A DNA stretch of 64,000 nucleotides from the IMG/VR virus record IMGVR_UViG_3300003629_000001; one strand, 5' to 3'. Below the pieces are notes generated by a model. That model had not been told where the DNA came from. It made no database searches and saw only the letters and a list, made by a program, of their open reading frames with translations. This stretch comes from a virus. Positions 9,227 through 54,161 of the stretch are shown piece by piece. Made by a program: the position numbers and the translations under genes. Each line of letters begins with the position of its first letter. Position 1 is the stretch's first letter.

Positions 9227-9267
9227 CCAACCAAATCTTCTTGACTGTCGCCATACTGTTGTACGGT

Positions 9268-32687: not shown

Positions 32688-33038
32688 ATGGACGAAAGAG
32701 TTCGCGTAACGGAATCTTCCCGCTCTCGCTTGAACGAACTCAAGCAAGGGGGTCAGACCCACTCCGACGTGCTGGGTAGGATTCTCCCCGAAGAGGCCGA
32801 CGAACGGCTTGAGAACGAAGAGAAGGTTTCGATTGGCGTCACCCCGGAAATCCATGACCGGATTTTCGCACTGGCTGGCGACGGCGTTCCGGCGTATAGA
32901 GTAGTCGAATACTACCTCTACCGAGAGCAAATGAAGCAGGTCGTCTCGGCTGACGAGTTGCTTGACACGCTCTACAATAGGGGTACTGGCATGGTCGAAG
33001 AGCGGTACATCGAAGACACGGAAACTGAAAATGAGTGA
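32688..33038 (+). CDS. Tandem ribbon-helix-helix DNA-binding protein
   Basis: RVRVTESSRSRLNELKQGGQTHSDVLGRIL, then VSIGVTPEIHDRI. Confidence 0.6.
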   Translation: MDERVRVTESSRSRLNELKQGGQTHSDVLGRILPEEADERLENEEKVSIGVTPEIHDRIFALAGDGVPAYRVVEYYLYREQMKQVVSADELLDTLYNRGTGMVEERYIEDTETENE

Positions 33039-33939
33039 ACAAGAACTCGGTACGATTCGCGGCCCCTCGCAACGCATTCGGGAGATTATCACGCACACGG
33101 CGCTGGCTGGTCGGGGCGACCCCTTCCACAGCGACGTATATCTCTCCGTCACGCCCGGTCAGGTGGACACGGTTGTTGCCAGCGACGGTAACACTCTGTT
33201 GACCTACTGTACGTTCACCGACGACGCGCTGTCGGAGATTGACGTAACTGAAGACGACGCGGACTCGGCACAGGCAATCGTCAACGTGGCGGATTTCCTG
33301 AACTACCTCGATTTCGCGTCTGACGGCGGTGAAGTGGAACTCGCCTTCCGGGGCGAACCCGACAGTAAACTCGCGTCCGTGCTGGAAGTGACCGGGGCGC
33401 TGAACACCCGCGTCATGCTCCCGGCCAGCGAGTCGATTCTGGACGACGTACCGGTCAACGCCATGTTCGACCGGTTTGACGACGAGAACAATTTCCAAGG
33501 CAAGAGCGGGGCGTTGGAAACGAACATCGAAACCGACGTGGAACAGATTCAGCGGCTAATCGAAATCGTCAACTACGACTCCGAGACAGAGTTCTTCCCG
33601 ATTACGGTCGAAGAGGTAGATTCGGCTACTGTTGAAGGGGAGAATGTCGAAGCGGAAGTAGAAGGTGAAGGTGAAGAGTTCGACGGGAGTGGCGAGTACG
33701 AGTTCGCGCTGGACATTGGCCGTGACACCGGTCGGAACGCTGTGTGGGGTGAAATGAGCGCCACGTCAGTTACGTCCGACTCCGAGGTTCACAACAACTA
33801 CCACCAAGGATTCGAGCCTGTCTTCGACACGCTCGGCGGCGACGTTCGACTACAGACCGCTTCCGGGGGCGCTCCCCTTGCTGTGGTTCAGGAACGTGAC
33901 GGAGTAACCCTTCGCCACGTTATCGCCAACGTGTCGTAG
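33031..33939 (+). CDS. pcn: Divergent PCNA sliding clamp
   Basis: The secondary-structure pattern fits PCNA (VYLSVTPGQV, AIVNVADFLNYL, C-terminal APLAVVQ..GVTLRHVIA). RFC and PolB are encoded nearby. Confidence 0.65.
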   Translation: MSEQELGTIRGPSQRIREIITHTALAGRGDPFHSDVYLSVTPGQVDTVVASDGNTLLTYCTFTDDALSEIDVTEDDADSAQAIVNVADFLNYLDFASDGGEVELAFRGEPDSKLASVLEVTGALNTRVMLPASESILDDVPVNAMFDRFDDENNFQGKSGALETNIETDVEQIQRLIEIVNYDSETEFFPITVEEVDSATVEGENVEAEVEGEGEEFDGSGEYEFALDIGRDTGRNAVWGEMSATSVTSDSEVHNNYHQGFEPVFDTLGGDVRLQTASGGAPLAVVQERDGVTLRHVIANVS

Positions 33940-34011: not shown

Positions 34012-35211
34012 ATGGACAAAGCAACTAACGCGCTCTTCGGAACGTTCCCGAGAGCGGTCGGTGTAACGCAAGATTTCGGGGGGCTACGACAGTTCGTTGT
34101 TCACTCCGCCGGAGAGTTCGACGTGTTCACCGACGCCGTAAACGGTTCGAGAAATGCCTACGCGTCCGTGTCATGGCGTCCAATCGGGGGTAACATCAAA
34201 CTGGACAAAGTGACGCTTGATTTTGACACGCCAGCGAAACCGGACTGGCCTATGTTCGAGGGCGAGAAGCCCCCGGACGACGAGATTGTGGCGCGTATGC
34301 GGAGTGACGACCGAATAGCCAACGACGTGCTGGGAGAGGTGTTTCAGGACGCCAGCGAGTTGGCCCAACGTGCGATAGAAGACGAGGTTCCCCTGATAGG
34401 GGTATTCTCGGGAATGGGTATGCACGTTCACCTACTGTACGAAGAGACGAACGAAGACCTGAAAAAGAAACTCGGCACGACCGCCCGGAAGTACGTGGGC
34501 GACCTGAACCTCGGGACGGCTGACCCGAAAGTCGGGCTGAACGGCGACCAGAAGAAAATCGTCCGTATCCCGAACATCGAACGAATCGAAATCACCAACG
34601 GCGGTGCGAACGTGCGGCCATGCTCGGTGTTTACGATTCCGCTGACGCGGAAAGAGTTAGCGGACGGTATCTCCCCGAGTGAAGCGCTCGAAATGGCGCG
34701 GACGGAGCGAGATATAGACCCGGACATAGGTGAAGACGAGCGCCCGGAAATGGAAATCCACGACCACTACGTTACGGATTTCTCGGAAGAACAGCAGGCG
34801 GAACAGCAGGAAGTGGGCGACTCCGTACTTGGTGACGGTGACGACGACACCCTGCTTGAGTTCTTCCTACAGGAATGGCTGAAAATGCCCTGTATGTACG
34901 AGCGCGTTCAGCAACCGGAACCCGACCACCGGATTCGACAGAACTTCGCCGTGTTGATGTTCAATCTCGGGTTCTCGAAAGAGGAACTACACGAAATCAT
35001 TCAGCGAATCGGCTGGGTTGATTACGACTATGAGACAAGCAAGCACCAAATCGACCAAATCTACCGCCGGGGGTACTCCGACATGACGTGCGCGAGCATT
35101 CGTCGGAAGGGCCTCTGTACGGTGGACGAAGACGGTAAAGACCCACAAGTAGACGACGCGGAACAGTGTCCGACGTTCGGTTGGTCGGGGGGAAAGGTGG
35201 AATGGAAATGA
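34012..35211 (+). CDS. priS: Archaeo-eukaryotic primase, PriS catalytic domain fused to PriL C-terminal Fe-S domain
   Basis: LDFD, FSGMGMHV and IVRIPN, then MPCM..HRIR...YSDMTCASIRRKGLC...CP. Confidence 0.85.
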   Translation: MDKATNALFGTFPRAVGVTQDFGGLRQFVVHSAGEFDVFTDAVNGSRNAYASVSWRPIGGNIKLDKVTLDFDTPAKPDWPMFEGEKPPDDEIVARMRSDDRIANDVLGEVFQDASELAQRAIEDEVPLIGVFSGMGMHVHLLYEETNEDLKKKLGTTARKYVGDLNLGTADPKVGLNGDQKKIVRIPNIERIEITNGGANVRPCSVFTIPLTRKELADGISPSEALEMARTERDIDPDIGEDERPEMEIHDHYVTDFSEEQQAEQQEVGDSVLGDGDDDTLLEFFLQEWLKMPCMYERVQQPEPDHRIRQNFAVLMFNLGFSKEELHEIIQRIGWVDYDYETSKHQIDQIYRRGYSDMTCASIRRKGLCTVDEDGKDPQVDDAEQCPTFGWSGGKVEWK

Positions 35212-35567: not shown

Positions 35568-36551
35568 ATGACTGTTTCAGACGCGATTTGGGTAGAGAAG
35601 TACCGCCCCTCGAACCTTGACCAGATAGTCGGCAATGAGGATATTGTCGCCCGCATGAAGGATTTCAGTTCCGACGCTGAAATGCCGAATATCATGCTTG
35701 CTGGCCCACAGGGAACCGGGAAGACCGCCATGACTACCGCACTCGCCAAAGAGATTTACGGTGACGACTGGCGGAGCAATATGCTGTCGCTGAACGCCAG
35801 TGACGAGCGTGGTATCGACACGGTTCGTGACCGAATCAAGTCGTTCGCTCGCACTGACACCGTTGGGGGCTACGATTTCAAAATCGTGTTCCTTGACGAA
35901 GTTGACAGCACCACGAAAGACGCCCAGTCAGCAATGCGGCGGGTCATGGAAGACTACAGCGACAAGACGCGGTTCATCCTGTCCTGTAACTACCCCAACA
36001 AGATTATCGCCCCGATTCAGTCACGGTGTGCCATGTATCGCATGGACAGACTCGGGGACGACGGCATTCGTCAGGTCGTTGCGAACGTAATCGCACAGGA
36101 AGGTATTGAGGCGTCTGACGAAGCCATAGACGCACTCGTTCAGGAAGCGGGCGGTGACGCCCGGAAGGCAATCAACACGCTTCAGTCGTGCGTGTTGGAC
36201 GGAGAACTCACTGCTGAAGGCGTACAGTCGATTGCCGGAGCGGTCGGGTACGACGAGGTTCGCGCAATCCTCGAAGACGCGATTGCTGGCAATCTGGACG
36301 ACGCTATGCGGACGCTGGACGTGGACGTACTGAAGGCGGGTGTCTCGGAACAGAAGTTCATCGACACCGCTCTTCGCGTCGTCAAGACGCTGGATATGCC
36401 CGCTGACGCCCGTGCGAAGTGTATCGACAAGATAGCCGAGTGCGACTGGCGAGTCATGCAAGGAGCGAACCCGCACGTCCAACTTCACTCCCTGCTGTCC
36501 GACGTACATATCGCGTACCACCTGTCGCTTCCAAACTACAGCGAGGAATAA
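35568..36551 (+). CDS. rfcS: Replication factor C small subunit
   Basis: WVEKYRP, GPQGTGKT, LNASDERGIDTVR, FLDEVD and IQSRC. Confidence 0.95.
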   Translation: MTVSDAIWVEKYRPSNLDQIVGNEDIVARMKDFSSDAEMPNIMLAGPQGTGKTAMTTALAKEIYGDDWRSNMLSLNASDERGIDTVRDRIKSFARTDTVGGYDFKIVFLDEVDSTTKDAQSAMRRVMEDYSDKTRFILSCNYPNKIIAPIQSRCAMYRMDRLGDDGIRQVVANVIAQEGIEASDEAIDALVQEAGGDARKAINTLQSCVLDGELTAEGVQSIAGAVGYDEVRAILEDAIAGNLDDAMRTLDVDVLKAGVSEQKFIDTALRVVKTLDMPADARAKCIDKIAECDWRVMQGANPHVQLHSLLSDVHIAYHLSLPNYSEE

Positions 36552-38379: not shown

Positions 38380-39185
38380 TGCCTTGGAAAGACTACGACA
38401 TTAGCGCGTCTCGAATCAAAAAGCACGCGTCCTGTCCCGAGAAGTACCGACTCCGCTACAAGGCGGACAAACAGCCGACGAAAATGCGACAGGGCTACGG
38501 TGAAATCGGTTCCCTCGTCCACGAAGCGATTGAAAACGTCCTGACCGAGCGCCCGGACGAAAAGAACCAGAGCGCCCTGACCAGCCGTCTCAAGCAAGAG
38601 TTCTACGAACTCGAAGACAGCGGCGAGTACGACATGGACTTGATAGACGACCGGCAACGGTCGGACGGACTGGACTGTCTCGAAATGGCCGCCAAGTGGC
38701 TGGCGAAGCCCGACAACGACGTAGAGTTCCGAGATATAGAGGCTGTCTGTCACTACAATCTGGACGGTATTGACCGGACGGCTATCGGGTTCATGGACGT
38801 TGCCACGATGGACGGCATTTGGGACTGGAAGACCGGCACGATTCGGGGCGACGAAACCGAGCGTGACGAAATCATTCAGGGGGCCGTCTACATGGGCGGC
38901 TACCACAACGAGTACGGTGAACTCCCGAAGTACATCAAGTTCATCTATCTCAAAGAAGAGAAGGTTCGCACCGTCACGCCCGGCGAGGAAGCGTGGAACG
39001 AAATGCTGGGCTACGCCCGCGAACTCGTCAAGAGCGAACAGACGGACACCTATGAAGCCGACCCCGAGGAAGGAAAGTGCTACTTCTGTGGGTTTGAAAT
39101 GTGGTGTTCGGAATCCGCTGTCTCGCCCGGTCAGATTCAAGCGGAAATTGACTCCGGTCAGACTGAAATGTGGGACGCAATCTGA
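38379..39185 (+). CDS. Cas4/AddB-like PD-(D/E)XK exonuclease with Fe-S cysteines
   Basis: ISASRI....SCP..Y, GFMD, DWKTG, Q...Y and CYFC.....C. Confidence 0.85.
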   Translation: MPWKDYDISASRIKKHASCPEKYRLRYKADKQPTKMRQGYGEIGSLVHEAIENVLTERPDEKNQSALTSRLKQEFYELEDSGEYDMDLIDDRQRSDGLDCLEMAAKWLAKPDNDVEFRDIEAVCHYNLDGIDRTAIGFMDVATMDGIWDWKTGTIRGDETERDEIIQGAVYMGGYHNEYGELPKYIKFIYLKEEKVRTVTPGEEAWNEMLGYARELVKSEQTDTYEADPEEGKCYFCGFEMWCSESAVSPGQIQAEIDSGQTEMWDAI

Positions 39186-39186
39186 T

Positions 39187-39642
39187 ATGGATACTGAAGA
39201 CAAATACCTCGAAACGGAGTTCTACGTGGTCATGGCTGGCGGAACGCCACCCCATCACATTCAGGACTACCAAGACGAGCGGATAGCCGACCCTGACGAC
39301 AGCACTGTCGGCGTAGACCGGAGCGGACTCCGCGACCACCGCGCGCTGAACGAAGATGTGCCTATCGACGGTCAAATCCGATTCTACTGGCCTGACCGGA
39401 TGGAACCCGACTGTGAAGAGGGCTGGAAATCGTTCGAGTTCCCGTTCCGGTCGGTCGAAAAGGACGACGCGCCGTGGGCGGCGTACCCGGACAAGGAGAA
39501 CTTCAGCCAGCACCCGGTGTGGGAGTGGCAAAACCCGAACGAAGACCCACATGAGAAACTGACGCTCAAGCCGAGTATCGGTGTGGGGTCGCCGCTGACG
39601 TTCCACTGCTTCGTTCGAGACGGCGAGGTGGAATGGATATAA
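39187..39642 (+). CDS. Hypothetical protein with DUF6527-like C-terminus
   Basis: WEW...LTLKPSI......HCFVRDGEVEW. Confidence 0.45.
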   Translation: MDTEDKYLETEFYVVMAGGTPPHHIQDYQDERIADPDDSTVGVDRSGLRDHRALNEDVPIDGQIRFYWPDRMEPDCEEGWKSFEFPFRSVEKDDAPWAAYPDKENFSQHPVWEWQNPNEDPHEKLTLKPSIGVGSPLTFHCFVRDGEVEWI

Positions 39643-40232: not shown

Positions 40233-43157
40233 ATGAGTATGACACTAATCCGCGTTACCGACCTGATATACCGCGACTCCGACGAACACGGAGTGCTGGT
40301 AATCGTATCTGGTCGGGCGCGAAACGAGAACCCCGACGAACAGGACAAGCGGGTCGCGTGCCACATTACGGGTACGACTCCCTACGCCTTCGTCCCCGAC
40401 CACGACAACGTGGAACTGGATATAGGCGGTCACGTAGACCTAACGAACGAGATACCCGACGAAGACTGGGTGACGCACGTCGAACCCGGTTATCAGGGCT
40501 ACGACGGCGTGCCGCTCCGACGTGTAGAGGTAGCCGAACCCGGCAACGTCAACGACCTGAAAGAACACTTCGACGTTGTGTATGAGGCTGACGTTCCCTA
40601 CGTTCGCCGCTCGTCAATCGACTACGGACTCTCTGGTTACATCCGTGTCCCCAGCGAGAAAGTGAGCGAGGTTGGCGGGAGTGAGATTCGGGAGTCGGAC
40701 GCCGTGACGGTAGACGTGGACGAACTCGAAACCGAAATCGACAGCGGAGAACTCGAAGAGCAAATCGAACCCCGAGTTCTCATGGCTGACATTGAGGTGA
40801 TTCCGCCGGGCGAAGGGGGGTCGTTCGAGACGTTCACCGAGAAGGCCGAGAAGGCGGTCACGGCGATTACGACCTACGACACCTACGCCGAGGAATATAT
40901 CGCGTTCGTGCTTGACCCCGAAGACGTGGTGGAAGGCCACCGCGTCAAACAGCACCTCGCTGACCATTGGGACGACGACGAAATCGGCCACGGTGCGAAC
41001 TACGAGAAGTACGTCGGTCAGGCTGACATTAGGCTTATCAAGAGTACGACAGAGAAAGATATGCTCTTGTCGTTCATTGACGAGGTGGAAGAATACCGTC
41101 CAGACCTTTTGAGCGGCTGGAATTGGGTAGATTTCGACCACGAATACCTACTCAATCGGTTCCGCAATCACTTCGACGGTATCAATGAGCATAGACTGTC
41201 TGACATAGGTACTGTCAGCGGCTTCAAGACCAGCGAGAAAATCGACGGCCTCCCCGGCTTCGACATGATGGACGCGTTCTGTGAGAAAATGACGTTCTCA
41301 CAGTGGCGCTCGAAGAGCCTTGACTACGTGTCCAAGGAAGAGTTGAACACGGGGAAGGTGGCGGACGTGTCTATCGGGGAAGCCTACCAGAACGACCGCA
41401 ATCGCTTCCTCGCGTACAACATAATCGACACGCAACTGCTGGTCGGCATGGACGAGAAGCACGGGATTCATGAGTTCTTCTACGAACTCGCTGACCTGTC
41501 GTCCATCCAGATTTACGACACGTTCTCGGAAATGCGTCTCGTTGACGGCTTCCTCATGGCCCACCGAGACGACGACGAGATACTTCCCACCCAGTCCAAG
41601 AAGGACTTGGAAAGTATTCCCGGTGGGCTGGTTCTCTCCCCGAGTGACGGCGTGGAAGAGTGGGTCGCGGTGCTTGACCTGAAGAGCCTGTACCCGTCCA
41701 TCTTCATTACGCTGAACGTTTCGGAAGAGACGCTGACGAAGAACCCCGAGTACGCCGACTTGGTGTGTCCCGATATGCCAGCCAGCGAAGACGACGTTGG
41801 TGGCAAAATCGAAGACCACCACATCAAGTGGGACGTGGAAGAGGGCGCTGTCGGTATGCGTACTGACGAAGTGGGTGTAGGCGAAGGCGTTCTCCCGAAG
41901 TACCTCGCTCTGCTGTTCGAGGAACGTGCTGATAAGAAGGAGATTCGGAACCAGTACGAACACGGCGACCCGCGCTACACGGTTTGGGACAACAAGCAGA
42001 ACGCGGTGAAGGTTATCATGAACTCGTTCTACGGAGTGTCACAAAACAAATACTACCGCCTGTCTACGCCCATTCAGGGGAGTCAGGGTATCGGTAGTAC
42101 GATTACCGCTGGCGGACGGTACACTCTGTGGCGAGGGGCCGAAATCGCGGAGAAGATGGGCTATACTGTCAAATATGGAGATACTGACAGTATTATGATA
42201 AGTCTTGCTGACGCCGACGAAGACGTGACCGCACGGGAAGTAGTCGAACGTGGCAAGGAAGTGGAAGAAGAAATCAACGCGGCTATGGACGACGTAGCCG
42301 ACGAGTTCGGAGTCCCCGAGGAACACCCGTTCCTGAAGGACAAAGACCTACACGGGACTGACCGCCACTGTCTTCACTGGGAGTTCGAGAAACTGTATCG
42401 CCGCTTCCTACAGACCGGCAAGAAAAAGCGTTATGCTGGAAACAAAGCGTGGGAAGAGGGTGAGTGGCTTATCGACCCCGACGCCGTTGACCCCGATTTC
42501 CCGAAGCCGGACATTACCGGACTCGAAGCCAATCGGGCCGACGTACCGCCCATTACCGCCGAGACGCAACGTCGGGTAATCAAAATGGTACTCGCCGGTG
42601 CGGAGTTCGAGGAAGTGAGCGACTACCTCTCCGGTATCGTTCAGACGGTGAAGCACAACGAGAAGGAACTGTCGGAACTCGGGACGCCGGGCGTAATCAA
42701 CAAACCGCTCGAAGAGTACCCGAACCGTCCGACGAAGCGGGCGTGTCTCTACAGCAACGACCACCTCGGGTACTCGTTCCGCGAGGGCGACGACCCGTGG
42801 ATATACAAGATTCAGGACACTCCGGCCATGAAGCCCGCGACTGACGTGATAGCCCTCGAATGGTCGGACGAGGAACTACCCGACGGATACGGACTGGATA
42901 TTGAGGGTATCATCGAAAAGAAGATTCAAGACCCAATCGACCCCGTGGTTCCGTGGTCGTTCGAGGAACTTCGGTCGGGCCGTCAGGTCGAAGCAATCGA
43001 CTTGGGTGGCGGCGGCGATTCAAGCGACAATCCGTTCGCTTCCGCTTCCACCAGTAACGACGACGCTGATACCGATACTGACGACACCGAGGAAGAGTCC
43101 GAAGAGGAAGAAGAGAGCGACGACGAGGAAGCCACGAACAACCCCTTAGAATGGTAG
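40233..43157 (+). CDS. polB: Family B DNA polymerase, no intein
   Basis: Exonuclease motifs ADIEV, GWN..DFD and YNIID; polymerase motifs DLKSLYPS, KVIMNSFYG, YGDTDS and KKRYAG. Confidence 0.97.
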   Translation: MSMTLIRVTDLIYRDSDEHGVLVIVSGRARNENPDEQDKRVACHITGTTPYAFVPDHDNVELDIGGHVDLTNEIPDEDWVTHVEPGYQGYDGVPLRRVEVAEPGNVNDLKEHFDVVYEADVPYVRRSSIDYGLSGYIRVPSEKVSEVGGSEIRESDAVTVDVDELETEIDSGELEEQIEPRVLMADIEVIPPGEGGSFETFTEKAEKAVTAITTYDTYAEEYIAFVLDPEDVVEGHRVKQHLADHWDDDEIGHGANYEKYVGQADIRLIKSTTEKDMLLSFIDEVEEYRPDLLSGWNWVDFDHEYLLNRFRNHFDGINEHRLSDIGTVSGFKTSEKIDGLPGFDMMDAFCEKMTFSQWRSKSLDYVSKEELNTGKVADVSIGEAYQNDRNRFLAYNIIDTQLLVGMDEKHGIHEFFYELADLSSIQIYDTFSEMRLVDGFLMAHRDDDEILPTQSKKDLESIPGGLVLSPSDGVEEWVAVLDLKSLYPSIFITLNVSEETLTKNPEYADLVCPDMPASEDDVGGKIEDHHIKWDVEEGAVGMRTDEVGVGEGVLPKYLALLFEERADKKEIRNQYEHGDPRYTVWDNKQNAVKVIMNSFYGVSQNKYYRLSTPIQGSQGIGSTITAGGRYTLWRGAEIAEKMGYTVKYGDTDSIMISLADADEDVTAREVVERGKEVEEEINAAMDDVADEFGVPEEHPFLKDKDLHGTDRHCLHWEFEKLYRRFLQTGKKKRYAGNKAWEEGEWLIDPDAVDPDFPKPDITGLEANRADVPPITAETQRRVIKMVLAGAEFEEVSDYLSGIVQTVKHNEKELSELGTPGVINKPLEEYPNRPTKRACLYSNDHLGYSFREGDDPWIYKIQDTPAMKPATDVIALEWSDEELPDGYGLDIEGIIEKKIQDPIDPVVPWSFEELRSGRQVEAIDLGGGGDSSDNPFASASTSNDDADTDTDDTEEESEEEEESDDEEATNNPLEW

Positions 43158-43347
43158 AATTTCAAGAAAAAGCCGAAGCAATGGTCGGCAAAGTCGGAGA
43201 GGGAGAACCGCCCGGTAGTGACGAGACTTGCACGCTGTACGTCAAAGGCTGGTGTGGCGGTGGCAAAATCATGGTCACGACCAGTGGTACGAAGTACGCG
43301 TGGGAAATGGACGCTGAAGACCTTCGGAACGTCAGAGAGCCAAAACT

Positions 43348-43641
43348 ATGAGCGACGACAAGAACATTCTCGAACAGGCGAACGACACGGTTGCACAGCG
43401 GGCTGAAGAGTATGGCCCACCGGACGAGAACTTCCAGAAAGCCGCTGACCTGTGGTCAGCCTATCTCGGTGTGCCTATCTCGAAGTACGACTACGCTCAA
43501 ATGATGTTGCTCGCCAAGGTTGCACGGACGAAAACCGGCGACCCCGGAGAAGACGAAGAACTGGACAAGGTGGGGTACGCGTTCACTGGCGACCTTGTTC
43601 GGCGGAGCATGATGGAAGACGGGGTGTGGAATGACGAGTAA
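43348..43641 (+). CDS. DUF6378-like phage protein
   Basis: ILEQA...V..R...YGPP.ENF...A.LWSAYL...M.L.KVAR. Confidence 0.7.
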   Translation: MSDDKNILEQANDTVAQRAEEYGPPDENFQKAADLWSAYLGVPISKYDYAQMMLLAKVARTKTGDPGEDEELDKVGYAFTGDLVRRSMMEDGVWNDE

Positions 43642-44197
43642 GGTTGCTGTCGATATGGACAGCACTCTCGCCGCAACGTGGGAAATGGCCTTCGAGTTGC
43701 TGGAAGGCCCCGACCATGACAAGTCCTACGACGACTTAGCATATTGGGACTGGGGAGTTGACGAATACGGACACCCCCGGTTCCTGAACGCTCTGTGGGG
43801 CGCGTGGACGATTCGAGGGGCCGACATACCCCCGATGGAAAGTGGCCTCTCGAACGTCATTACGCGTCTGAACGAGGAACATGAGGTACACGTTGTTACC
43901 GCCCACCCGAATCGTCTCGGCCTTGACGAAGCCAAAGAAGAGTGGTTGGACGCGCAAGAGATTCCCTACGACAACTTCGTCTCACTCCCACCTCGGTTTA
44001 GCAAGGGGAAGTTCGAGCAATATCGGTGGTACATAGACGACAACCCCGGATTCGTAGACGAAGTGCCGGAACACGCTACGCTGTACTTGAGGAATCAGCG
44101 CTACAATAGGCATATCGACACAGACTCGTATGTTAGCGTGGAACGCGTAAGAACTGTAGCCGAGGGCGTGAATAGGATTCTTAATGACACTCAATGA
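43631..44197 (+). CDS. HAD-family 5'(3')-deoxyribonucleotidase
   Basis: VAVDMDSTLA, VVTA and YIDDNP. Confidence 0.75.
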   Translation: MTSKVAVDMDSTLAATWEMAFELLEGPDHDKSYDDLAYWDWGVDEYGHPRFLNALWGAWTIRGADIPPMESGLSNVITRLNEEHEVHVVTAHPNRLGLDEAKEEWLDAQEIPYDNFVSLPPRFSKGKFEQYRWYIDDNPGFVDEVPEHATLYLRNQRYNRHIDTDSYVSVERVRTVAEGVNRILNDTQ

Positions 44198-44311
44198 GTG
44201 TACGTGTGAGAATCCAGAGATAGAAGAGCGAGAAATGCTGTCCAGTGCGATTGAAAAGATAATCAAGTGCGTGTCGTGCGGCGCGTCGAAAATCGAATGG
44301 AAACAAGTCCC

Positions 44312-44920
44312 ATGACAGATTCAAACGGAACCTTCGTCACACTCGAAGGTATCGACGGTAGCGGGAAGACCAGTGCGGCAAAAGTGATTCAGGAAGAGTA
44401 CAAGGCAACGGTTCAGACGCAAGAGCCGAGCGACCTGTGGACTGGCAAGCAGGTCAGGCGGGCTATCAGTAACGACGAAGCCGACGTACACCCACTCACG
44501 ACGTTCTTCCTGTTCATGGCGGATAGGAACCACCACATCAACGAACGTATTCAGGACGCACTTGACGACGATATGCTGGTGGTCAGTGACCGGTATTCCG
44601 ACAGCACGTTGGCGTATCAGCCGGTCGCCCTTGAAGACCACCTCGAAGACGCTCCGACGTTTATGCGCGACGTTATGGCGGAATGGAACCTCGAACCTGA
44701 CCTGACTATCTATCTGGACGTATCCGTTGATACGGCTATCGAGCGTTCTGTTGGTGACGAGGAATACGAGAACCGCGAGTTTCTTGAGGGTGTCAAGGCC
44801 AACTACGACGAGATTCGTGACGAGTTCGACCACCGGTACGTCACACTGAACGCCGAGAAACCGATTGACCACGTTCAGAAAGAAGTGCTACAGATAGTCG
44901 AAGCCTACTACGATAACTAA
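44312..44920 (+). CDS. tmk: Thymidylate kinase
   Basis: FVTLEGIDGSGKTS, LFMADR, VVSDRYSDSTLAYQ and PDLTIYLDV. Confidence 0.95.
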   Translation: MTDSNGTFVTLEGIDGSGKTSAAKVIQEEYKATVQTQEPSDLWTGKQVRRAISNDEADVHPLTTFFLFMADRNHHINERIQDALDDDMLVVSDRYSDSTLAYQPVALEDHLEDAPTFMRDVMAEWNLEPDLTIYLDVSVDTAIERSVGDEEYENREFLEGVKANYDEIRDEFDHRYVTLNAEKPIDHVQKEVLQIVEAYYDN

Positions 44921-44922
44921 CC

Positions 44923-45237
44923 ATGCCTGAACCACAGAGAATTGCTGTCGATTTCGACAAGACGCTCACTGACCCGGACGGCGGGACGTACTTCACAGAC
45001 GAACCGACGCTCCCGAACAACAACATGATAATGTGGGTCAACGAGCGTTACAAGGAAGGTCACACTATCATTATCCATACCGCTCGCCCGTGGTCGGAAG
45101 CCATGAAGACAGTCGGGAAACTGACCGAGTGGGGCGTCCGCTGGCACGGGATTCGGATGGATAAAGGGGCCGCTGACGTGTACGTTGACGACAAAGCGCT
45201 ACAGCCTGAAGAAGCCCGGAGTGATAATCATGTCTGA
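44923..45237 (+). CDS. Minimal HAD phosphatase
   Basis: IAVDFDKTLT, IHTAR and K..ADVYVDDKA. Confidence 0.75.
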   Translation: MPEPQRIAVDFDKTLTDPDGGTYFTDEPTLPNNNMIMWVNERYKEGHTIIIHTARPWSEAMKTVGKLTEWGVRWHGIRMDKGAADVYVDDKALQPEEARSDNHV

Positions 45238-45433
45238 ATGTCCAAACTGTAAGTCTGAACAGATTCGAGAGCGAGGGGCTAATCTCCTTCGTAACGTCAA
45301 GCGCCGCGAGCGGGGAGAGAAATTAGACCCGTTCGTGTGTGACGCCTGTGAGTGGTCGGGAACCGAGGAAATGCTGGTCATGGACGAAGACGACGAAGTT
45401 CAGGTTGATACACTGAACCCGATGGAATACTAA
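45230..45433 (+). CDS. Zn-ribbon microprotein with C-terminal NPMEY motif
   Basis: CPNC...CDAC. Confidence 0.65.
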   Translation: MSECPNCKSEQIRERGANLLRNVKRRERGEKLDPFVCDACEWSGTEEMLVMDEDDEVQVDTLNPMEY

Positions 45434-46657
45434 TGGATAGGTCAAGCGACGGCGACCCGAACGGAAATCCTCGCATTACAGGCGGGAGTCATCCGAAGTG
45501 CGAGGAATGCGGGTCGAAAATAGTTCCACACTTCACGTCGTTCGGTTTCTGGTATCACTGTAAAAACTGTGGTCACAATGGCGGCGACGGTTCAGTCGAA
45601 CAGGTGGCCGAGTTATGAGTCACCGTCAGCACCCCAGTTGGATTGTTCGTCACACACTCTTCGTCGCGTGTACGATTATCGTGACGTTCCTGCTACTGGG
45701 TTTCGCAATCATACACTTCGCATGAAAGAGAAAATGGAAGCGTACCTCGACCCGTTCGACGGTGACGGCATACTTCACAATAGGGATAATATGGACGAAG
45801 ACGACGAAACAGAGTACGAATGTAGCGAGTGCGGGGCGGATTGGGAAGGAGAATCGTGCTTCGGGTACGTCAACCCGGTTTGTAGCGAATGCGGAACCGT
45901 AGCGCCACAGGCGAAGGTAGAGAAATGATAGAACCGATTTACCAGAACTATCAGGTCGAACACAACAACGAGGAAGAGGGAATGGCAATGCAAATGTACC
46001 AAGACGAAACTGTTCTTGGCGGGTTTCGGATAGTCAAATGAGAGCCAAAGTCCGGTGTGGCGCTCCGAAAGCGCGTGGTCATGAAGGAGTATGTGACCGT
46101 CTCGCCGCTACTCCGTACTGTCCCGAGCATATGTTCTACGCCGACGAGGGTGGATTGTTCAAGGTCGTTCTCGAAGACGACCGGGTGCTGGTCGTTCGCG
46201 CCCGAAGACTCGGTGACGTGTGCGATTTCATCAAACCCGGAGTAGAGATAGAGAGGGTAATCTAATGCCAGCCGACCCCAGCAACATCAAAGAACGACTT
46301 GTAATCAGCGACGACTATCAGGACGATAAAGTGTGGATTGAGTTCTACACCAATACTTCAGTAGCGATTGGCCGTGGCGAGGAAGGGCCAAATCAAGACC
46401 GTGTGTGGTTGGACGGGAAAGAGAAGCATGGCATATTTGAGGCGCTGTCTGACCACCTCGGAGAGGTAGAAGAGATAACTGTCGAAATAACGAAATGACC
46501 GTCGAACCTGTTTGGGTGGAAAAGCATGGTGAGCGGTTTCATCCTCGCATTGGTGGTGGTTGTAGACAGAAAACACGAAGATTGGTGCTTCGGGGATTTC
46601 AAGTTCAAAGATGAACCCACCCAGCGGCTTTTGTTTGTCTGATAGGGATAATACTGT

Positions 46658-47041
46658 ATGGACTTTCCAAACGAAGACGAACCTGACGGCGACCGCTTTC
46701 TCCCACACCACTATCTACATGGGGCTTGGGCGCTCTTGCTGATAGCCCTGATTCACGACGCGACATTCGTTTTGGTTCCGATATTCCTGTCGCTCTTCGG
46801 CTGGTATCACGTATGGTTCCACTACCACGCGTTCGGGGCCAGCCTGACGCTGATAGGCTTGAGCGCCGCGCTGGGTGGGGCAATCATGAGTCCCGCACTT
46901 TCACCCACAATGAAGTTTTTCGCTACTGTGGCCTTCCTGTGGGCGCTTGACGACGCCTACGAACACGCGACCGGAGTATGGACGCCATTGGACTGGCTCT
47001 GGAACAACCACCTTCGGAAGTACGTCAAACGGCTGGATTAA
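46658..47041 (+). CDS. Multi-pass membrane protein
   Basis: HHYLHG, several hydrophobic segments and DDAYEH. Confidence 0.6.
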   Translation: MDFPNEDEPDGDRFLPHHYLHGAWALLLIALIHDATFVLVPIFLSLFGWYHVWFHYHAFGASLTLIGLSAALGGAIMSPALSPTMKFFATVAFLWALDDAYEHATGVWTPLDWLWNNHLRKYVKRLD

Positions 47042-47097
47042 TCCCCTTCAAGAAGTTTTATAATCCTATAGACTGAAGCGTAGGTAGAGGGATAGAA

Positions 47098-48495
47098 ATG
47101 CCCAAGCAAACGATAGAGGGTGAGTCAACGACCGCGACGGTCATGACTGACCAATACGACGACAATTGTGGTGAGCAAATTCAGACGATTGCTGACCACG
47201 AAGCCTTCGAGAATCCGATAGCCATTATGCCGGACTGTCACTACGGAAGTGGCGCTGTCATTGGCTTTACCATGTCTATCGGAGAGCGTGTCGTCCCGAA
47301 CACGGTGGGAGTTGACATTGGCTGTGGCATGACCGCACGCCACCTTGGCGACGACCTATTCGCTGACGCTCCCGAGTATATCGGAATGCCGGAGATAGAC
47401 GAACTCATTCGGAGCAACATTCCGTTCGGGAGAGAGGTGTACGACTACGAGGAACAGAACTACCACATTGTAGACGATTTCCCGTGGGACGAATGTCAGG
47501 ACACCTTCGAGAAGTTCGTAGAGGCTGTTGACTGGCTTGACCAGTCCGACGTAGACGAGTTCATGGGGTACGGAAAAGCATACTTCATGGACGTGTGCCA
47601 GCGGGTACACTACGACCAGAGTCGGGCTATCAACAGTCTCGGGACGCTTGGTGGCGGGAATCACTTCGTAGAGATTGCCGAGTCTGAAAAGAACGGTGAC
47701 TACTGGGTTGTCGTCCACTCGGGGAGTCGGGGTATCGGCCTCTCAATCGCCCAGCACTGGCAAGATAAGGCGACCCAGTTCACGACCGCTCGGAAGAACA
47801 TCGAAGACGTTCCCGACGACCTTCGGCCCTACCTCAAGGAGAACTGGAAGCCGGACGCTGACGCGATTCGCTCGGATTTCGAGGGCGAAGAGATTCAGCG
47901 TATGTTCGACCGTATTAGCGGTGCAATTCAGGAATACGGCCCGAACGCTGACAATCGCAACAACGACCTTGACTGGCTGGAAGGCGACGAAGCACTCGGC
48001 TACTGTATCGACATGATTTTTGCCCAACGCTACGCGAGCGAGTCACGGCGGATTATGGTCGATACCGTTGCTGACCTGATTGGAAACGCTACTGAAGTCG
48101 AGTACGTGGAATCCACGCACAATTATATCGACTTTCAGGACGGCATGATTCGCAAGGGCGCGACGAAGGCCAACGAGGGCGAGCGTCTGATTATCCCGTT
48201 CAACATGAGAGACGGTACTATCGTTTGTCGTGGGAAGGGCAACGACGACTGGAATATGTCGGCCCCACACGGCGCTGGACGCCGTATGAGTCGAACGCGT
48301 GCGTTTTCGGAACTGGACGTAGACGAGTTCCACGACACCATGAGCGACGTGTTCAGCACTTCGGTCAACGAAGAGACGCTGGACGAAGCCCCCGCCGCCT
48401 ACAAGGACACCGCTGTCATTGAGTCGGTAATCGAAGAGACAGCGGAAATCGAAGACCGCTGGACTCCGGTCATGAACCTCAAGGCCGAAGAGTGA
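47098..48495 (+). CDS. rtcB: RtcB RNA ligase
   Basis: MPDCH, VGVDIGCGM, GTLGGGNHFVE, HSGSRG, HNY, RKGAT and SAPHGAGRRMSR. Confidence 0.96.
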   Translation: MPKQTIEGESTTATVMTDQYDDNCGEQIQTIADHEAFENPIAIMPDCHYGSGAVIGFTMSIGERVVPNTVGVDIGCGMTARHLGDDLFADAPEYIGMPEIDELIRSNIPFGREVYDYEEQNYHIVDDFPWDECQDTFEKFVEAVDWLDQSDVDEFMGYGKAYFMDVCQRVHYDQSRAINSLGTLGGGNHFVEIAESEKNGDYWVVVHSGSRGIGLSIAQHWQDKATQFTTARKNIEDVPDDLRPYLKENWKPDADAIRSDFEGEEIQRMFDRISGAIQEYGPNADNRNNDLDWLEGDEALGYCIDMIFAQRYASESRRIMVDTVADLIGNATEVEYVESTHNYIDFQDGMIRKGATKANEGERLIIPFNMRDGTIVCRGKGNDDWNMSAPHGAGRRMSRTRAFSELDVDEFHDTMSDVFSTSVNEETLDEAPAAYKDTAVIESVIEETAEIEDRWTPVMNLKAEE

Positions 48496-48628
48496 CGGGG
48501 TTAATCCTCGTCATGCCGGGTGGCGGGGAACAGAGGATTCCCGACGCGGATGAACTAATCGAACAACTTCGAGACGGAAACGGACACCACGTCACTGACG
48601 ACGGTGCGTGGGTGCGGGCAACAGCAAA

Positions 48629-48940
48629 ATGACTGAACTACGAGACTTACAACACGAAGCGTGGATGATAGCCGAAGAGAGTGGTTTCCATGAAGGCGAC
48701 GAAGCCGGGGAAGACGCTCGGAGTCGGGCGAAGATACTCGCTCTGATTCACTCCGAAATCTCCGAAGCACTCGAAGCGGACAGGGAAGGCGACGACGAGA
48801 ACTACCGGGAAGAACTTGCTGATACGGTTATCAGGATTCTTGACCACGCCGAGACGGAAGGTATCGACCTGACCGAAGAGATAGAAGCAAAGTTCGAGGT
48901 GAACCGCGACCGGGAGTTCAAGCACGGGAAGCAATACTAA
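48629..48940 (+). CDS. MazG-like NTP pyrophosphohydrolase
   Basis: LIHSEISEALEA...EELADTVIRILD...K...N..R..KHGK. Confidence 0.85.
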   Translation: MTELRDLQHEAWMIAEESGFHEGDEAGEDARSRAKILALIHSEISEALEADREGDDENYREELADTVIRILDHAETEGIDLTEEIEAKFEVNRDREFKHGKQY

Positions 48941-50039
48941 TGGACGAACTCTCAATCACGGAACTGGACGACAAGGAAGGCGTCGTCTACGTTCTCGGTA
49001 TCGCTCACAAAGCCCCCGAGTCCGTTCGGAAGTGGTTCTACGGCGACGAGTTCCGAAATGCCTTCCTCAAGCGATTCGACCATGCTGAAATGCTTCGTGT
49101 TCCGGGCGCGGTTGGAACAGTCGAAGTGACTGAAACGTCGAAGCAAGAACTCGAAGAGTTGTTAGACCTATGAGCGTTCGTCCGAACTACGGTCAGCGAC
49201 GGATTCACGTCACGCCCGAAGTGATAGAAGCGTGGCTGGTCAACGAGAACCGGGTGACGGCTAACTTACCGGACGACGCCCGTTTCGTTCGGATGTACGC
49301 TCGTGACCGTGGTGGGTACTACCTCGTCTTCGAGAGTACCGAGTGGGACGAACTCGCTGAAGGCGAGAATATCCCGAAGGAGAGCGTCACGGTCGAACGA
49401 GCGAATACGAGAGTCACAATTCAAAAATGACTGATACGGATAATCTGACGACAGTTCCGTGTGGCTGTGGCGATTTCAGTATAGAGGTGTCGAATACCTC
49501 TGTCGTCAACAAGTTCGACGTGGTGTGTCCCGAGTGCGACAACCACTTTGGGTGGCGAGAGAAATCGGGGAAATACAACTTCCTCGAAGAACTGTCCGCC
49601 CTCGAACACCGTCAGTGGATTCACTGGACGAAAGCGCTGGCGAAGCGCGAAGACCTTCCTGACGGACTCGTAGAGCGCTGGGAAGAGAACTGGATTCCCT
49701 ACGGGGAACTCGAAGACGACGTGAAAGAGCAAGACCGCGAGTGGGCGCGTAAAGCCCTCAAAATCATGAAAGGTAATCACGAATGAGAGGTTTCGGTGAC
49801 GCTATTCAGTTGGCACAGAAAGAAGCGGAACGGCGTTTCCCCGAGGGGGAGTACACCCTTCAAACGCTACAGTGGTGCGACGGCGACTACCGAATCACTG
49901 TCCGAAACGGGTTTAGCATGACCGAGGAAGAGAACTCACTACAGAAAGAAATCGTCGTGACGCCGCACCAAGCGAAGGTGCAACTTCGAGAGACTACCCA
50001 GTCGGAAGAGTATAGCGTCCACGACGAAGAGGTGCTACA

Positions 50040-51290
50040 ATGAGCGAAGAGTCGTGGGTAGAGAAGTACAGACCCGAGGTGTGGGGTGACATTCAGGGGA
50101 ACAATAGTGACCTTGACGACCTGAAAGACTGGTGTCGTAATTTCACTCCCGGCGATACGCCGCAATTGTTAGTCGGGACGCAAGGCACTGGGAAGACCAG
50201 CACAGCGAACGTAATCGCCAACAAGATGGATTGGCCGATGAATCAGACCAACGCCAGTGACAAGCGCTCTTCGGAAGATATAGCGCGACTGGCGGCGTCT
50301 ATCTACACCACGCCACCGGACGCGGAGTTCCAACTGGTGCTGATTGACGAGATAGACAGTCAGTCGTCTCGCACTAACAAGCGTCCGTTGTACGACGCGC
50401 TGGACTCTCCGAATAACCCTGTTATCATTACGGCGAACGACGAGTACGATATTCCACAGGGTATCAAGAGTCGCTGTAAGATTCGGGAGTTTAAACTGTC
50501 GAAGGCGTCGAAGGCGGCTAAACTGAAAGACATAGCCGAAGCCGAGGGCATTCGAGACGAAATGTCCGACGCTGACCTTGAAGACCTATCCGAGCGGGCT
50601 GACCTTCGCTCCGCGATTCAGGATATGCAAACGTGGGCGAAGCAGGATATTCCGCCGGGTCAGGACGAACGTGACGTGGAAATCGGTGAGTTCGAGGTTA
50701 TGGATAATATCATGCGAGGGACGAAGGAAGCGGGTCAGGTCAGCCCGCCCGATTTGGTCATGTGGCTTGACGAGAACCTTCGCAAAGAGTTCCGGGGCGT
50801 CGAAGCGCTCACCGCCTACGACACGCTCGCCAACGCCGACAAGTGGCTCGCACGCGCCCAGCAGGAAGACTATCGGTTCTGGAAGTACGCTGGGGAATTG
50901 GCCGAACAGACGGCGACACAGCGCGTGACAGAGCCTTACGACGGCTGGATGGACAAGGACTTTCCCGAGTGGTTCCGGCACAAGCAACCCAACGCGCACG
51001 GGGAGAAGCCCGAAGCGCGGCTGTACCGGAAACTTAAGGACTGGGAAGGCGGTTCTTTCCAGTTCGCCGGGGACTACACCCACTTCCTGAACGTGGTGCT
51101 ACCCCTACTCGAAGACCTACCGCTGGACGAGCGCCGTCAAATGGTGTTAGAATTGAGCCTTGACGACGGCGAAATGGAAGCGCTGGGTGTCAGTCCGAAG
51201 CGCTATAAGAAGTGGGCACAGTCGGACGTACCAGCCGAGCGCCAGCAGAACGAAGCGGAACTACAGACGACGGACGTGCTGGACTACTAA
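50040..51290 (+). CDS. rfcL: Replication factor C large subunit
   Basis: WVEKYRP, GTQGTGKTS, NASDKR, LIDEID, DLRSAI.D and WLDEN. Confidence 0.9.
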   Translation: MSEESWVEKYRPEVWGDIQGNNSDLDDLKDWCRNFTPGDTPQLLVGTQGTGKTSTANVIANKMDWPMNQTNASDKRSSEDIARLAASIYTTPPDAEFQLVLIDEIDSQSSRTNKRPLYDALDSPNNPVIITANDEYDIPQGIKSRCKIREFKLSKASKAAKLKDIAEAEGIRDEMSDADLEDLSERADLRSAIQDMQTWAKQDIPPGQDERDVEIGEFEVMDNIMRGTKEAGQVSPPDLVMWLDENLRKEFRGVEALTAYDTLANADKWLARAQQEDYRFWKYAGELAEQTATQRVTEPYDGWMDKDFPEWFRHKQPNAHGEKPEARLYRKLKDWEGGSFQFAGDYTHFLNVVLPLLEDLPLDERRQMVLELSLDDGEMEALGVSPKRYKKWAQSDVPAERQQNEAELQTTDVLDY

Positions 51291-53271
51291 CAATGCAAGG
51301 AATCAGCGGAACACTCCGATTCGAGTCGCACGAAGAGTTAGAAGAATACTTCGACTGGGCCGAAGGCTTCCTCATGACGAAGCAGGACGTGGAACAGGGT
51401 CTACAGGGCGTACCAGACGACGAAGTGCCGTATCCGCTCGAACTCGAAATCGACTTGGCGAAGCAAACTGTGAAGAATCTCGCCAAGAAGAACCCCGAGA
51501 AGACAGTCGAACTACAGAACAAGTGGCTGGAATCGGAGTAAGACTTATACCAGTTCATCCCCTATCAAGGAATGAAGACAATGTGGAAAGGCAAACTCAA
51601 AATTGAAGACGAGGAGAGCATGACCGAGTTCTTCGTTAACACCTCGGACGCGCTCATTACGCAAGATGAAAAGAACCGGATTGCCGAGGTAGTCCAAGAG
51701 GCTGACACCGTGTCGTGGCCTATGGAAATCGTGTTCGAGATTCAGGAAGATACGTGGGAAGCGTTCTCGAACAACCACCCGGACGAAGCCAAGGTAATCG
51801 AAAACCACCTCGAACAGCAACCCACCCAAGCATGAGCGGAGAAATGCAAGACGCTCACGGGTACTACTGTAAGACGTGCGGGGACGAGATAGCAGATATA
51901 ATCGAACTCGTCCAGCACGGGTGCGAGGAACCGCTGGCCGCGCCGTCGCTCTCGAAGGGTGAGCGGGCGACCCTCATGTATATTGAGAGTCGCGTTGTGG
52001 AACACCGGGGCGAGTTAGACCACGAGCAAATGAACTACGACGACCAACAGAACATCAAGGTCTTTCAGGCGGCTGGACTCCTTGAGATAGACGAGTTCAC
52101 CGTGAAGGTGTTCTCTGACGCGGCGTGGAATCTCACCCGCGACTGTCGGCAAATGCGTGCTGACAGTTGGATTGAGGGCGACACGGACATAGGCGACGTG
52201 CCGGGTGACTTGAAGTGAGCGACGAAGTTCGTCTTCGCTTTGCTGGGTCGTTCGGTGACGGGTTAGAGTTCGTGGAAGCCGAAGACGGTGACGGTAACAG
52301 TATCGACGTGGGGACGTGGGAGCGCGACGGCGACTACCACATTCTGACGTTCGACCCCGAGGATTCGGTATAGCGCTATGTGGTTTATTTTCGGGATTGT
52401 GACGCAAGCGGGGCCAGTGACCCTATATTCACAGATAAAGTTTTTTATCCTGCTGAATGGGGTCAAACAGCCCACCACCGCCTTCGGGCGAATAGCAAAA
52501 CTCGCCGGTTTATATCCGCAAATCTGATACCATGAAACAGAAACTCAAATCCAAAATCAGTAGCCTACTTGAGAGGTATGGTTACAAACCAATCGAAGTA
52601 ATTCCTCATTGTTGCGAATGCGAGAATGAGGCTGACCACGCCACACAGCAAGCACCCGGTCGCGGGCTTGACTACTGGTGCGAAGACCACTGTCCCGTCT
52701 GTAATCCGAGGGTGAACATTGACTGACCAACCTGACCCCAACGACCGAGACGCGTTCCTTGAGTGGATGGTCGGACGACAGTTCCGATACGACGTTGCCA
52801 CGACGCAAATCCACTTCGAGGGAATCGAACCGATTGTCGAAGAGAGCGAAGTAGAAACCGAGTCCGGTAACGAACTCACCGAGAGCGTCAAAGCCGACTC
52901 CGTGTACCTACTCGCTGAAGAACTCACCACGACCGACGAGACAGTCGAAGGCGAAGTGACCGAAACCACTGTCCCGACTGTTGACCCAGCCGACGGAACC
53001 GGCGAGGAACACAAGATTCCCTTCGACACTGTGCGGGTCGCGTGGCTACAAGGAAGGATAGAAGAGATATGAACGGCTCAAGAGATAATCAAGGTGGGCG
53101 TACTAATCTCCGTGGAGAAACACCGACTCAAGCATTCGGAACAGCAGTGGTAGAAGCTTTTGCTCCACTTCTCCGAGACGCGCTTCAAGGACGTGAGATT
53201 AACGAGAAGAAAGCACGAGAACGGTTGGAACACCAACTGGAAGGCCGAGGCTTCGAGGTTGAAAAGAAAGA

Positions 53272-53580
53272 ATGACCGTCGTTAGTATCCGCTGTCAAGA
53301 GTGCGACGAGGTGAAGCGTGAAGAGAAAATGGCTGGTATTCAGGTGTGCAAGGAGTGTTCGGGCGGCGACACCCCGGACTCACCCGAGGAAGACGACGAC
53401 GCTAACTCCGAAGACGGGTCAGTTAGCAATGGAGGTGGCGTCAGCGAGGAAGAAATCACCGAGGAATCTGACAGTACCCCTACTGACGACGCTGACACCG
53501 ACGAAACGACGGACAGCGCCGAAAGAGACAAGAAGCCGCTTGAAGAATCATTTAACGAGCAAGACCCGCTCGAATGGTAA
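53272..53580 (+). CDS. Zn-finger protein with acidic linker and C-terminal DPLEW motif
   Basis: CQEC...CKEC. Confidence 0.7.
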   Translation: MTVVSIRCQECDEVKREEKMAGIQVCKECSGGDTPDSPEEDDDANSEDGSVSNGGGVSEEEITEESDSTPTDDADTDETTDSAERDKKPLEESFNEQDPLEW

Positions 53581-53858
53581 TCCAACAATGCCAACCATGA
53601 TAGTCGAATTTGAAGACGTGAGTGCGACAATGGAAGGAACCGTAATCAAGGTCGAACGGAACACGGGTGGCCGCGAAGGCTACTTCTACTTCGGCCCCGA
53701 GTACATGGAAGAGTTCGACGGCGGGTCGTTTGCACTCTCGGCTGGGCGAGAACTCCCAGCGGAAATCGGCCTGCTACCGGACGGTGAGCGGGAAGCCCTT
53801 CGGGAGAATCTTTTTCCGAAGGACGACGACGAAGACTCCGGTGAGTCTGAAGAATGAC

Positions 53859-54161
53859 ATGGTAAAACCTGTACTCAACGTTCATACTGAATGGGTGGAG
53901 AACAAGTACGGGAAGCACCTCGAATTTCACTGTAGCAATTGCGGGAACATCGAACGCATGGTTCGTCGGAACGCGACGAAATTCTGTTCGTCGTGTGACC
54001 GTCTCATGCAAGCCGAGAACTACAGTTGTTCGGGGGAAGCGCCTGACCCACAGAATCCAAAGCGATTCCTTCGCAAGACAGCGAAGCGGCGTGGACTCCC
54101 CTACGATTACTACTACCCCGAGGAAGACGAACCGACGACAGACGACCCTTTGGACTTTTAG
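53859..54161 (+). CDS. Zn-finger protein with C-terminal DPLDF motif
   Basis: CSNC...CSSC. Confidence 0.65.
   Translation: MVKPVLNVHTEWVENKYGKHLEFHCSNCGNIERMVRRNATKFCSSCDRLMQAENYSCSGEAPDPQNPKRFLRKTAKRRGLPYDYYYPEEDEPTTDDPLDF

Follow-up and report, generated by a model that had tools for sequence, protein, structure and literature searches.

What reads the C-terminal sequence that is common to the DNA polymerase, a clamp-loader subunit and three small zinc (Zn)-ribbon proteins of an archaeal virus? The question is raised by a 64,000-nucleotide stretch of viral DNA, called the window below, which corresponds to bases 28914-92913 of the 110.7-kb IMG/VR virus record IMGVR_UViG_3300003629_000001, rated as complete by CheckV. 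Its source is an uncultured salt-lake archaeal virus, a Druskaviridae-like halovirus: the family B DNA polymerase (PolB) is 47-49% identical to that of four Haloarcula siphoviruses of the family Druskaviridae (the isolates HCTV-1, HCTV-5, HCTV-16 and HVTV-1), and the replication module has the same gene set and order as in these isolates. A preliminary description of this DNA had proposed that the shared ending is a private clamp-binding motif, read by a divergent viral version of the sliding clamp PCNA. We consider it likely, with a probability of roughly 0.72, that the tails are a lineage-specific, shortened version of the PCNA-interacting peptide (PIP) and that they dock on the virus's own divergent PCNA, the product of 33031-33939.

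A shared ending on five viral proteins

A six-frame scan identified five open reading frames (ORFs), all on the + strand, that end in [DN][PV][LM][ED][WFY] immediately before the stop codon: PolB, the large subunit of the clamp loader (RFC-L) and three small Zn-ribbon proteins (Table 1). All five ends are as the preliminary description had given them. A scan of the entire 110.7-kb genome, with 1013 ORFs in six frames, gave no other terminal match and no internal one. With the virus's own amino-acid frequencies, 0.0026 terminal matches would be expected by chance at its approximately 122 C-termini, a figure that rises to 0.2 for the loose core [PVI][LMI]x[WFY]. It should be noted that the motif was defined post hoc and that these enrichment figures are inflated as a result; we therefore give more weight to the comparison with relatives, which provides an independent test. 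Looser patterns yielded no further tail bearer in this genome. A chance origin of the five tails is ruled out by the enrichment taken together with the within-genome covariation described below. Spurious ORFs are ruled out as well, all five having either a coding-type composition or conserved homologues. For two of the small genes the longest ORF overstates the start, the likely ATGs being those at 45230 and 53859, which give proteins of 67 and 100 amino acids (aa), respectively. An ORF at 38770-39642 with the conserved end GEVEWI was also considered as a tail bearer and rejected, since this end looks structural.

In archaea, PolB and RFC-L bind PCNA through C-terminal PIP boxes (PMC7776575), in agreement with the preliminary description, and the P. 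furiosus PCNA/RFC-L peptide complex 1isq is among the Foldseek matches of the viral clamp presented below. The viral tail occupies the same place on these known clamp clients, at the extreme C-terminus behind a flexible linker. An acidic stretch precedes it in four of the five proteins, in line with the earlier remark that most tails follow an acidic linker, and all three small proteins contain CxxC...CxxC pairs. Compared with the archaeal PIP box, as known from 1isq, from the A. fulgidus PCNA/FEN-1 complex 1rxm and from the H. volcanii consensus QxxLxxFx, the viral tail nonetheless differs in lacking a fixed Gln, in having Pro or Val before the Leu, and in placing its aromatic, often a Trp, as the very last residue. 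The spacing between the aliphatic anchor (Leu or Met) and the aromatic is also two residues in all five proteins, instead of the canonical three that cellular-type RFC-L and the PolB of Hafunaviridae haloviruses have. Only the 102-aa Zn-ribbon protein has a Gln three residues before the anchor (Q-D-P-L); the corresponding residues are N-N-P-L in PolB, T-D-V-L in RFC-L, and L-N-P-M and D-D-P-L in the 67- and 100-aa proteins.

Table 1. Tail bearers, proposed tail receptor and neighbouring replication genes, in window coordinates
Feature	Position	Strand	Observations
Family B DNA polymerase PolB, 974 aa	40233..43157	+	Pfam DNA_pol_B and exo1; acidic linker; end NNPLEW, tail NPLEW (codons 43140-43154)
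RFC large subunit RFC-L, 416 aa	50040..51290	+	Pfam AAA, weak Rad17; end TDVLDY, tail DVLDY (51273-51287)
67-aa Zn-ribbon protein	45230..45433	+	end LNPMEY, tail NPMEY (45416-45430)
102-aa Zn-ribbon protein	53272..53580	+	variable acidic linker; conserved last 20 residues; end QDPLEW (53563-53577)
100-aa Zn-ribbon protein	53859..54161	+	basic helix; end DDPLDF, tail DPLDF (54144-54158)
Divergent PCNA-like sliding clamp, 302 aa; proposed tail receptor	33031..33939	+	phrog_25687; AlphaFold2 fold; Foldseek
Primase-like protein	34012..35211	+	phrog_9660; position of HVTV-1 gp100; no tail
RFC small subunit RFC-S (clamp loader)	35568..36551	+	phrog_168 clamp loader, E 1.3e-68; C-terminus not motif-like, no tail

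Tail dialects in relatives and the contrast with host-type PIP boxes

The preliminary description had suggested looking for the tail in related viruses, and there it is kept while the linkers vary. Across eight homologues of the 102-aa protein there is hardly any change in the Zn ribbon or in the C-terminal 20 residues, whereas the acidic linker differs in both length and sequence. Homologues of the 100-aa protein keep DPLDF or DPLDW, and their linkers carry insertions and deletions. In HCTV-1 and HVTV-1, RFC-L ends in SVLDF and PolB in GVLSW; further bearers in these isolates are an HNH nuclease, a GNAT acetyltransferase, a Dam methylase, a DUF6610 protein near the preQ0 genes and gp94/gp99. 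Orthologues of the GNAT, Dam, DUF6610 and gp94 proteins are absent from the present genome, where the accessory bearers are instead the three Zn-ribbon proteins. Only PolB and RFC-L are constant bearers in the relatives; the other clients turn over. Homologues of the HNH nuclease HCTV-1 gp86 do occur in this genome (window 9241-9987; genome 4628-4858 and 7421-7663), without the tail of gp86. The DUF6610 protein, 387 aa in length, lies beside the 7-deazaguanine (preQ0) genes (L002:5643-6806, HCTV-1 gp64; L004:33803-34963, HVTV-1 gp69) and ends in DVLDF or NVLEF, while the HVTV-1 Dam methylase ends in DVLDF and an N6/N4 methylase of the relative L016 in SALSW. From these endings, DNA-modification enzymes may be tethered to the viral clamp.

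Examination of metagenomic contigs of relatives revealed that each genome writes the tail in a dialect of its own. The tails are DPLAW, DPIEW and DILEW in L008, and DPLSW, DPLNF, DVLSF and DPLSF in L009. DALSW occurs four times in L015, on PolB, on RFC-L and on two further proteins, one of 96 aa and one of 118 aa that lacks a Zn ribbon. L016 follows the pattern SA-x-[SD]-W (SAFDW on PolB, SALSW on the methylase, SATDW on a 70-aa protein and SAMSW on RFC-L), and L013 has GVARW, DASQW and DPSNW. Orthologous proteins exchange one dialect for another. The 96-aa protein of L015 is the orthologue of 53859-54161 (43% identity over 81 aa), with DDPLDF swapped for QDALSW, and orthologues of the 67-aa protein combine a conserved body with the local tail, DPIEW in L008 and SATEW in L015 (60% identity). 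Tails agree at 3.02 of 5 positions within a genome vs. 1.87 of 5 between genomes (permutation p<=5e-5), a comparison of hand-picked tails that is indicative only. The concerted change of the tail across unrelated proteins points to a single receptor that differs between viruses. A divergent viral PCNA fits this pattern; since the host PCNA is well conserved among haloarchaea, the host clamp fits it less well. The 118-aa protein of L015 (L015:15011-15367) shares only an extended tail with the 102-aa Zn-ribbon protein (F-K-S-Q-D-A-L-S-W vs. S-F-N-E-Q-D-P-L-E-W). Because this is their sole likeness, the functional unit may span about 10 residues, including a Phe eight residues before the terminal aromatic.

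A phmmer search with RFC-L, which is 47% identical to HCTV-1 gp82, retrieved 25 full-length representatives of the viral clade (E<=2e-69). Judged by eye from the tails as printed, about 22 of them end in Trp or Phe after hydrophobic residues, and a QxxLxxF end is absent from all 25. By contrast, at least 60 of the 123 more distant, cellular-type RFC-L proteins (from E ~6e-42) end in QxxLxxF(x), as in that of Natrinema ejinorense (QSGLSDFM), and none of the 123 carries the viral core. The cellular-type ends agree with the PIP consensus QxxLxxFx published for H. volcanii, whose polymerases end in Phe-Met. A host-type ending is also seen in another group of haloviruses, the Hafunaviridae, a family that the 2021 tables (PMC8651126) do not list under the canonical PCNA cluster. 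Their PolB ends canonically in QSGLGAFI and QTGLAAFC (L010:1456-4107 and L011:1501-4065; HSTV-2 and HSTV-3), consistent with reliance on the host PCNA. In the present virus, a host-type PIP is not seen at the end of any real gene. The contrast with cellular RFC-L and Hafunaviridae PolB bears out the earlier view that the tail is unlike a host PIP. 'Private' has to be qualified, as the motif is that of an entire lineage of viruses, each genome with its own dialect, and not of this virus in particular. Together, the dialects and the Hafunaviridae ends suggest that orthogonality of the motif to the host clamp is plausible.

The viral PCNA-like protein and a model of tail docking

The proposed receptor is encoded near RFC-S and RFC-L. 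Its sequence matched nothing in Pfam, the PCNA_N and PCNA_C profiles included, and a PDB sequence search with its protein profile gave no match. The AlphaFold2 (AF2) monomer, built from an alignment with 31 homologues, had a mean predicted local distance difference test score (pLDDT) of 85.8 and a predicted template-modelling score (pTM) of 0.84, and consists of two similar beta-alpha-beta-beta-beta domains with a connector loop. The best listed Foldseek matches in the PDB were PCNA or 9-1-1 clamps (probability 1.0; target-normalised TM 0.65-0.80). According to this model the product has a PCNA fold, on which the preliminary description had made its proposal depend, and such a protein would be expected to form a trimeric ring. 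As it is only 10-14% identical to solved PCNAs and matches no Pfam family, it is nevertheless far removed from the receptors of the archaeal PIP box. An acidic insertion of about 17 residues at approximately 196-222, with pLDDT <50 at 202-207, is absent from its 285-aa homologues.

A divergent PCNA in these viruses is not in itself new. The HVTV-1 orthologue, gp101, was listed as PCNA with an HHpred probability of 96.4% in a 2021 supplement, along with gp87 (RFC-L), gp91 (PolB), gp96 (RFC-S) and gp100 (primase), a module that matches the present one in set, order and PCNA-like family (Liu et al. 2021, PMC8651126 table S3). Neither the main text nor the supplements of that paper mention a PIP or tail motif, and the searchable literature yielded no account of the tail motif, of its client lists or of the per-genome dialects.

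A complex was modelled between the PCNA-like protein and residues 63-102 of the 102-aa Zn-ribbon protein (alignment A3), with three controls; both alignments were built by ourselves. The interface score ipSAE was 0.79 (0.80, 0.79 and 0.77 in the individual runs), compared to 0.00 for the best control; this mark was reached by 58 of 80 solved complexes and by 2 of 110 mismatched pairs. At least 92% of contacts are common to the runs, and the partner pLDDT is at least 49. On the peptide, the contacting residues are F94-L100 and W102. On the clamp, they are 53-57 (N-domain), 141-158 (interdomain connector region), 188, 258-259, 280-282 (a nearly invariant G-A-P) and 297-302 (C-terminus). The modelled sites thus include the interdomain connector, the C-domain loop and the clamp C-terminal tail, as for the archaeal PIP box, and PIP peptides in solved PCNA complexes are held by these same elements. 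Binding of the tail to the clamp is supported by the model, not shown by it, and the model may pass because such complexes are familiar to the predictor. As to the idea that all the Zn-finger proteins are clamp partners, it is the tail of this one of the three that was modelled against the viral PCNA.

We propose that the five tails represent one short linear motif, D/N-[P/V]-[L/M]-[D/E]-[W/F/Y]-COOH, which would serve this lineage as its PCNA-interacting peptide. The tail would be displayed on a linker that is flexible and mostly acidic, and its Pro or Val, its Leu and the terminal aromatic would fill a groove made up of the N-domain, the interdomain connector, the C-domain loop and the C-terminal tail of the clamp. 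As PIP boxes do in cellular archaea, the tail would serve PolB in processive synthesis and RFC-L in loading the clamp, while the three Zn-ribbon proteins would be additional clients tethered to the loaded clamp. We favour this explanation because the two constant bearers are proteins that bind PCNA by C-terminal PIP boxes in archaea, because five terminal matches and no internal ones stand against an expectation of 0.0026, and because the tail is borne in relatives by non-homologous proteins (HNH, GNAT, Dam, DUF6610, N6/N4 methylase and small proteins). The PCNA fold, the docking score, the invariant tail behind a variable linker, the dialects and the host-type contrast all argue in the same direction.

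Several points weigh against it. The tails in the covariation test were picked by hand, and the docking used our own alignments. Conservation at the PCNA residues contacted in the model is not higher than elsewhere in the protein (0.63 vs. 0.61, p=0.34). PCNA-peptide complexes are common in the PDB, and the model may pass by likeness to them and not by specificity. With the Leu and the aromatic two residues apart instead of three, the tail departs from the canonical PIP spacing, which makes the modelled docking geometry uncertain. In more distant relatives (L013), the motif decays to little beyond the terminal Trp. A precedent for a shortened hydrophobic plug with anchors two apart is provided by the 'two-fork plug, no 3-10 helix' of C. 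thermophilum PolD4 (PMC10087552). The PolD4 motif, by contrast, is eukaryotic and N-terminal and retains the Gln pocket, and the likeness is one of description only.

Other receptors, and the role of the Zn-ribbon proteins

Could the tail be a degenerate PIP, read mainly or also by the host PCNA, so that viral clients ride on the cellular clamp or compete for it? Several tails (QDPLEW, QSVLDF, QDILEW) do have a Gln at the third position ahead of the Leu, like a PIP that is one residue shorter, and two published accounts describe PCNA grooves that tolerate divergent motifs (PMC6881253; a compact plug in PMC10087552). We nevertheless consider this unlikely, since the tails are uniform within a genome and different between genomes, as fits a fast-evolving viral receptor, since haloviruses without a listed PCNA of their own keep the canonical host-type end, and since the viral core is missing from every one of the 123 cellular-type RFC-L proteins. 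The receptor might also be another hub of the replisome, such as the primase-like protein, a single-stranded DNA-binding protein (SSB) or the AAA_24 ATPase. T7 gp2.5 and gp4 have acidic, Phe-terminated tails that bind the T7 polymerase. The present tails, acidic with a terminal aromatic, resemble them, and several neighbouring genes have no known function. The established shared partner of PolB and RFC-L is the clamp, however, and the PCNA docking model passes where its controls score zero, making a different hub quite improbable.

The bodies of the Zn-ribbon proteins gave only weak, generic Zn-ribbon matches in Pfam and none in PHROGs. An Atlas feature search returned only a weak FYDLN_acid-like lead (Zn ribbon and acidic tail), and no PDB structure matched the AF2 model of the 100-aa protein (pLDDT 69) at E<0.001. 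The preliminary description had suggested that these proteins couple late transcription to replication, in the manner of T4 gp33 and gp55 on gp45. The precedent is real, though an analogy only: the hydrophobic-acidic C-termini of T4 gp43, gp33 and gp55 follow variable linkers, are highly similar to one another and can be interchanged, so that the two late factors share the C-terminal clamp motif of the polymerase (PMC2988020). The Zn-ribbon proteins likewise share the tail of their polymerase, the architecture of anchor, linker and tail is alike in both systems, and gp45 is a virus-encoded clamp too. The clients in T4 are, however, RNA polymerase-binding transcription factors, whereas the Zn-ribbon bodies have no likeness to TFB, TFE, TFS, sigma factors or gp33/gp55 in Pfam, PHROGs, Atlas and PDB fold searches; the clamp here is also PCNA-like. 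Moreover, the genes lie within a replication and nucleotide-metabolism module, and the other clients in relatives are DNA enzymes (nuclease, methylases, acetyltransferase). As the bodies resemble neither a transcription factor nor any Pfam family or solved fold, coupling to late transcription finds no support, and we regard it as highly improbable.

If the tail is a clamp-binding motif, the three small proteins might, instead of delivering a function, occupy the clamp or regulate it. They would then contend with PolB and RFC-L for its groove, and could in this way set the timing of replication, for instance; this alternative concerns their role only. Their tiny size (67-102 aa) and bodies without a recognizable enzymatic or DNA-binding family would suit such competitors, as would the extended conserved tail of the 102-aa protein, with its extra Phe touching the clamp in the model. 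On the other hand, the conserved Zn-ribbon bodies and the basic helix of the 100-aa protein suggest a second binding partner, and a purely competitive role strikes us as possible but doubtful. Returning to docking on the viral PCNA, we would extend it only tentatively to an insulated clamp network, in which a fast-evolving viral PCNA and a matching dialect keep viral and host clients apart, clients are recruited by acquiring the five-residue tail, and at least one Zn-ribbon client acts beyond DNA synthesis, for example in replication-coupled transcription or DNA modification.

If the tail is this lineage's clamp-docking code, a five-residue search would list the clamp clients of each virus. 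The lists would include unannotated small proteins, Dam and N6/N4 methylases, GNAT and HNH proteins and the DUF6610 protein, turning 'hypothetical' genes into testable replisome accessories. The dialects would provide natural clamp/peptide pairs for studying the co-evolution of a hub and its motif, and would allow insulation from host replication to be tested. The culturable relatives HCTV-1 and HVTV-1, which grow on Haloarcula, make the clamp-tail idea testable.

A megablast search with PolB found no near-identical DNA in the phage collection, and a search for related loci in IMG/VR with RFC-L gave no match. The primase-like protein, which corresponds to HVTV-1 gp100, a fusion of the small and large primase subunits (PMC8651126 table S3), has a conserved end of its own, Cys-x-T-[FY]-GWSGG-x-x-EW, here GWSGGKVEWK. 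In L009 the primase-like protein has 8 further residues after the GWSGG-type end, placing the motif internally; for this reason it probably belongs to a folded module rather than being a clamp tail. Lastly, an acidic gene of 89 aa (53590-53857) lies between the genes for the 102- and 100-aa Zn-ribbon proteins. The longest ORF in its frame (53318-53857) also covers part of 53272-53580, and a naive gene call is led astray by it.

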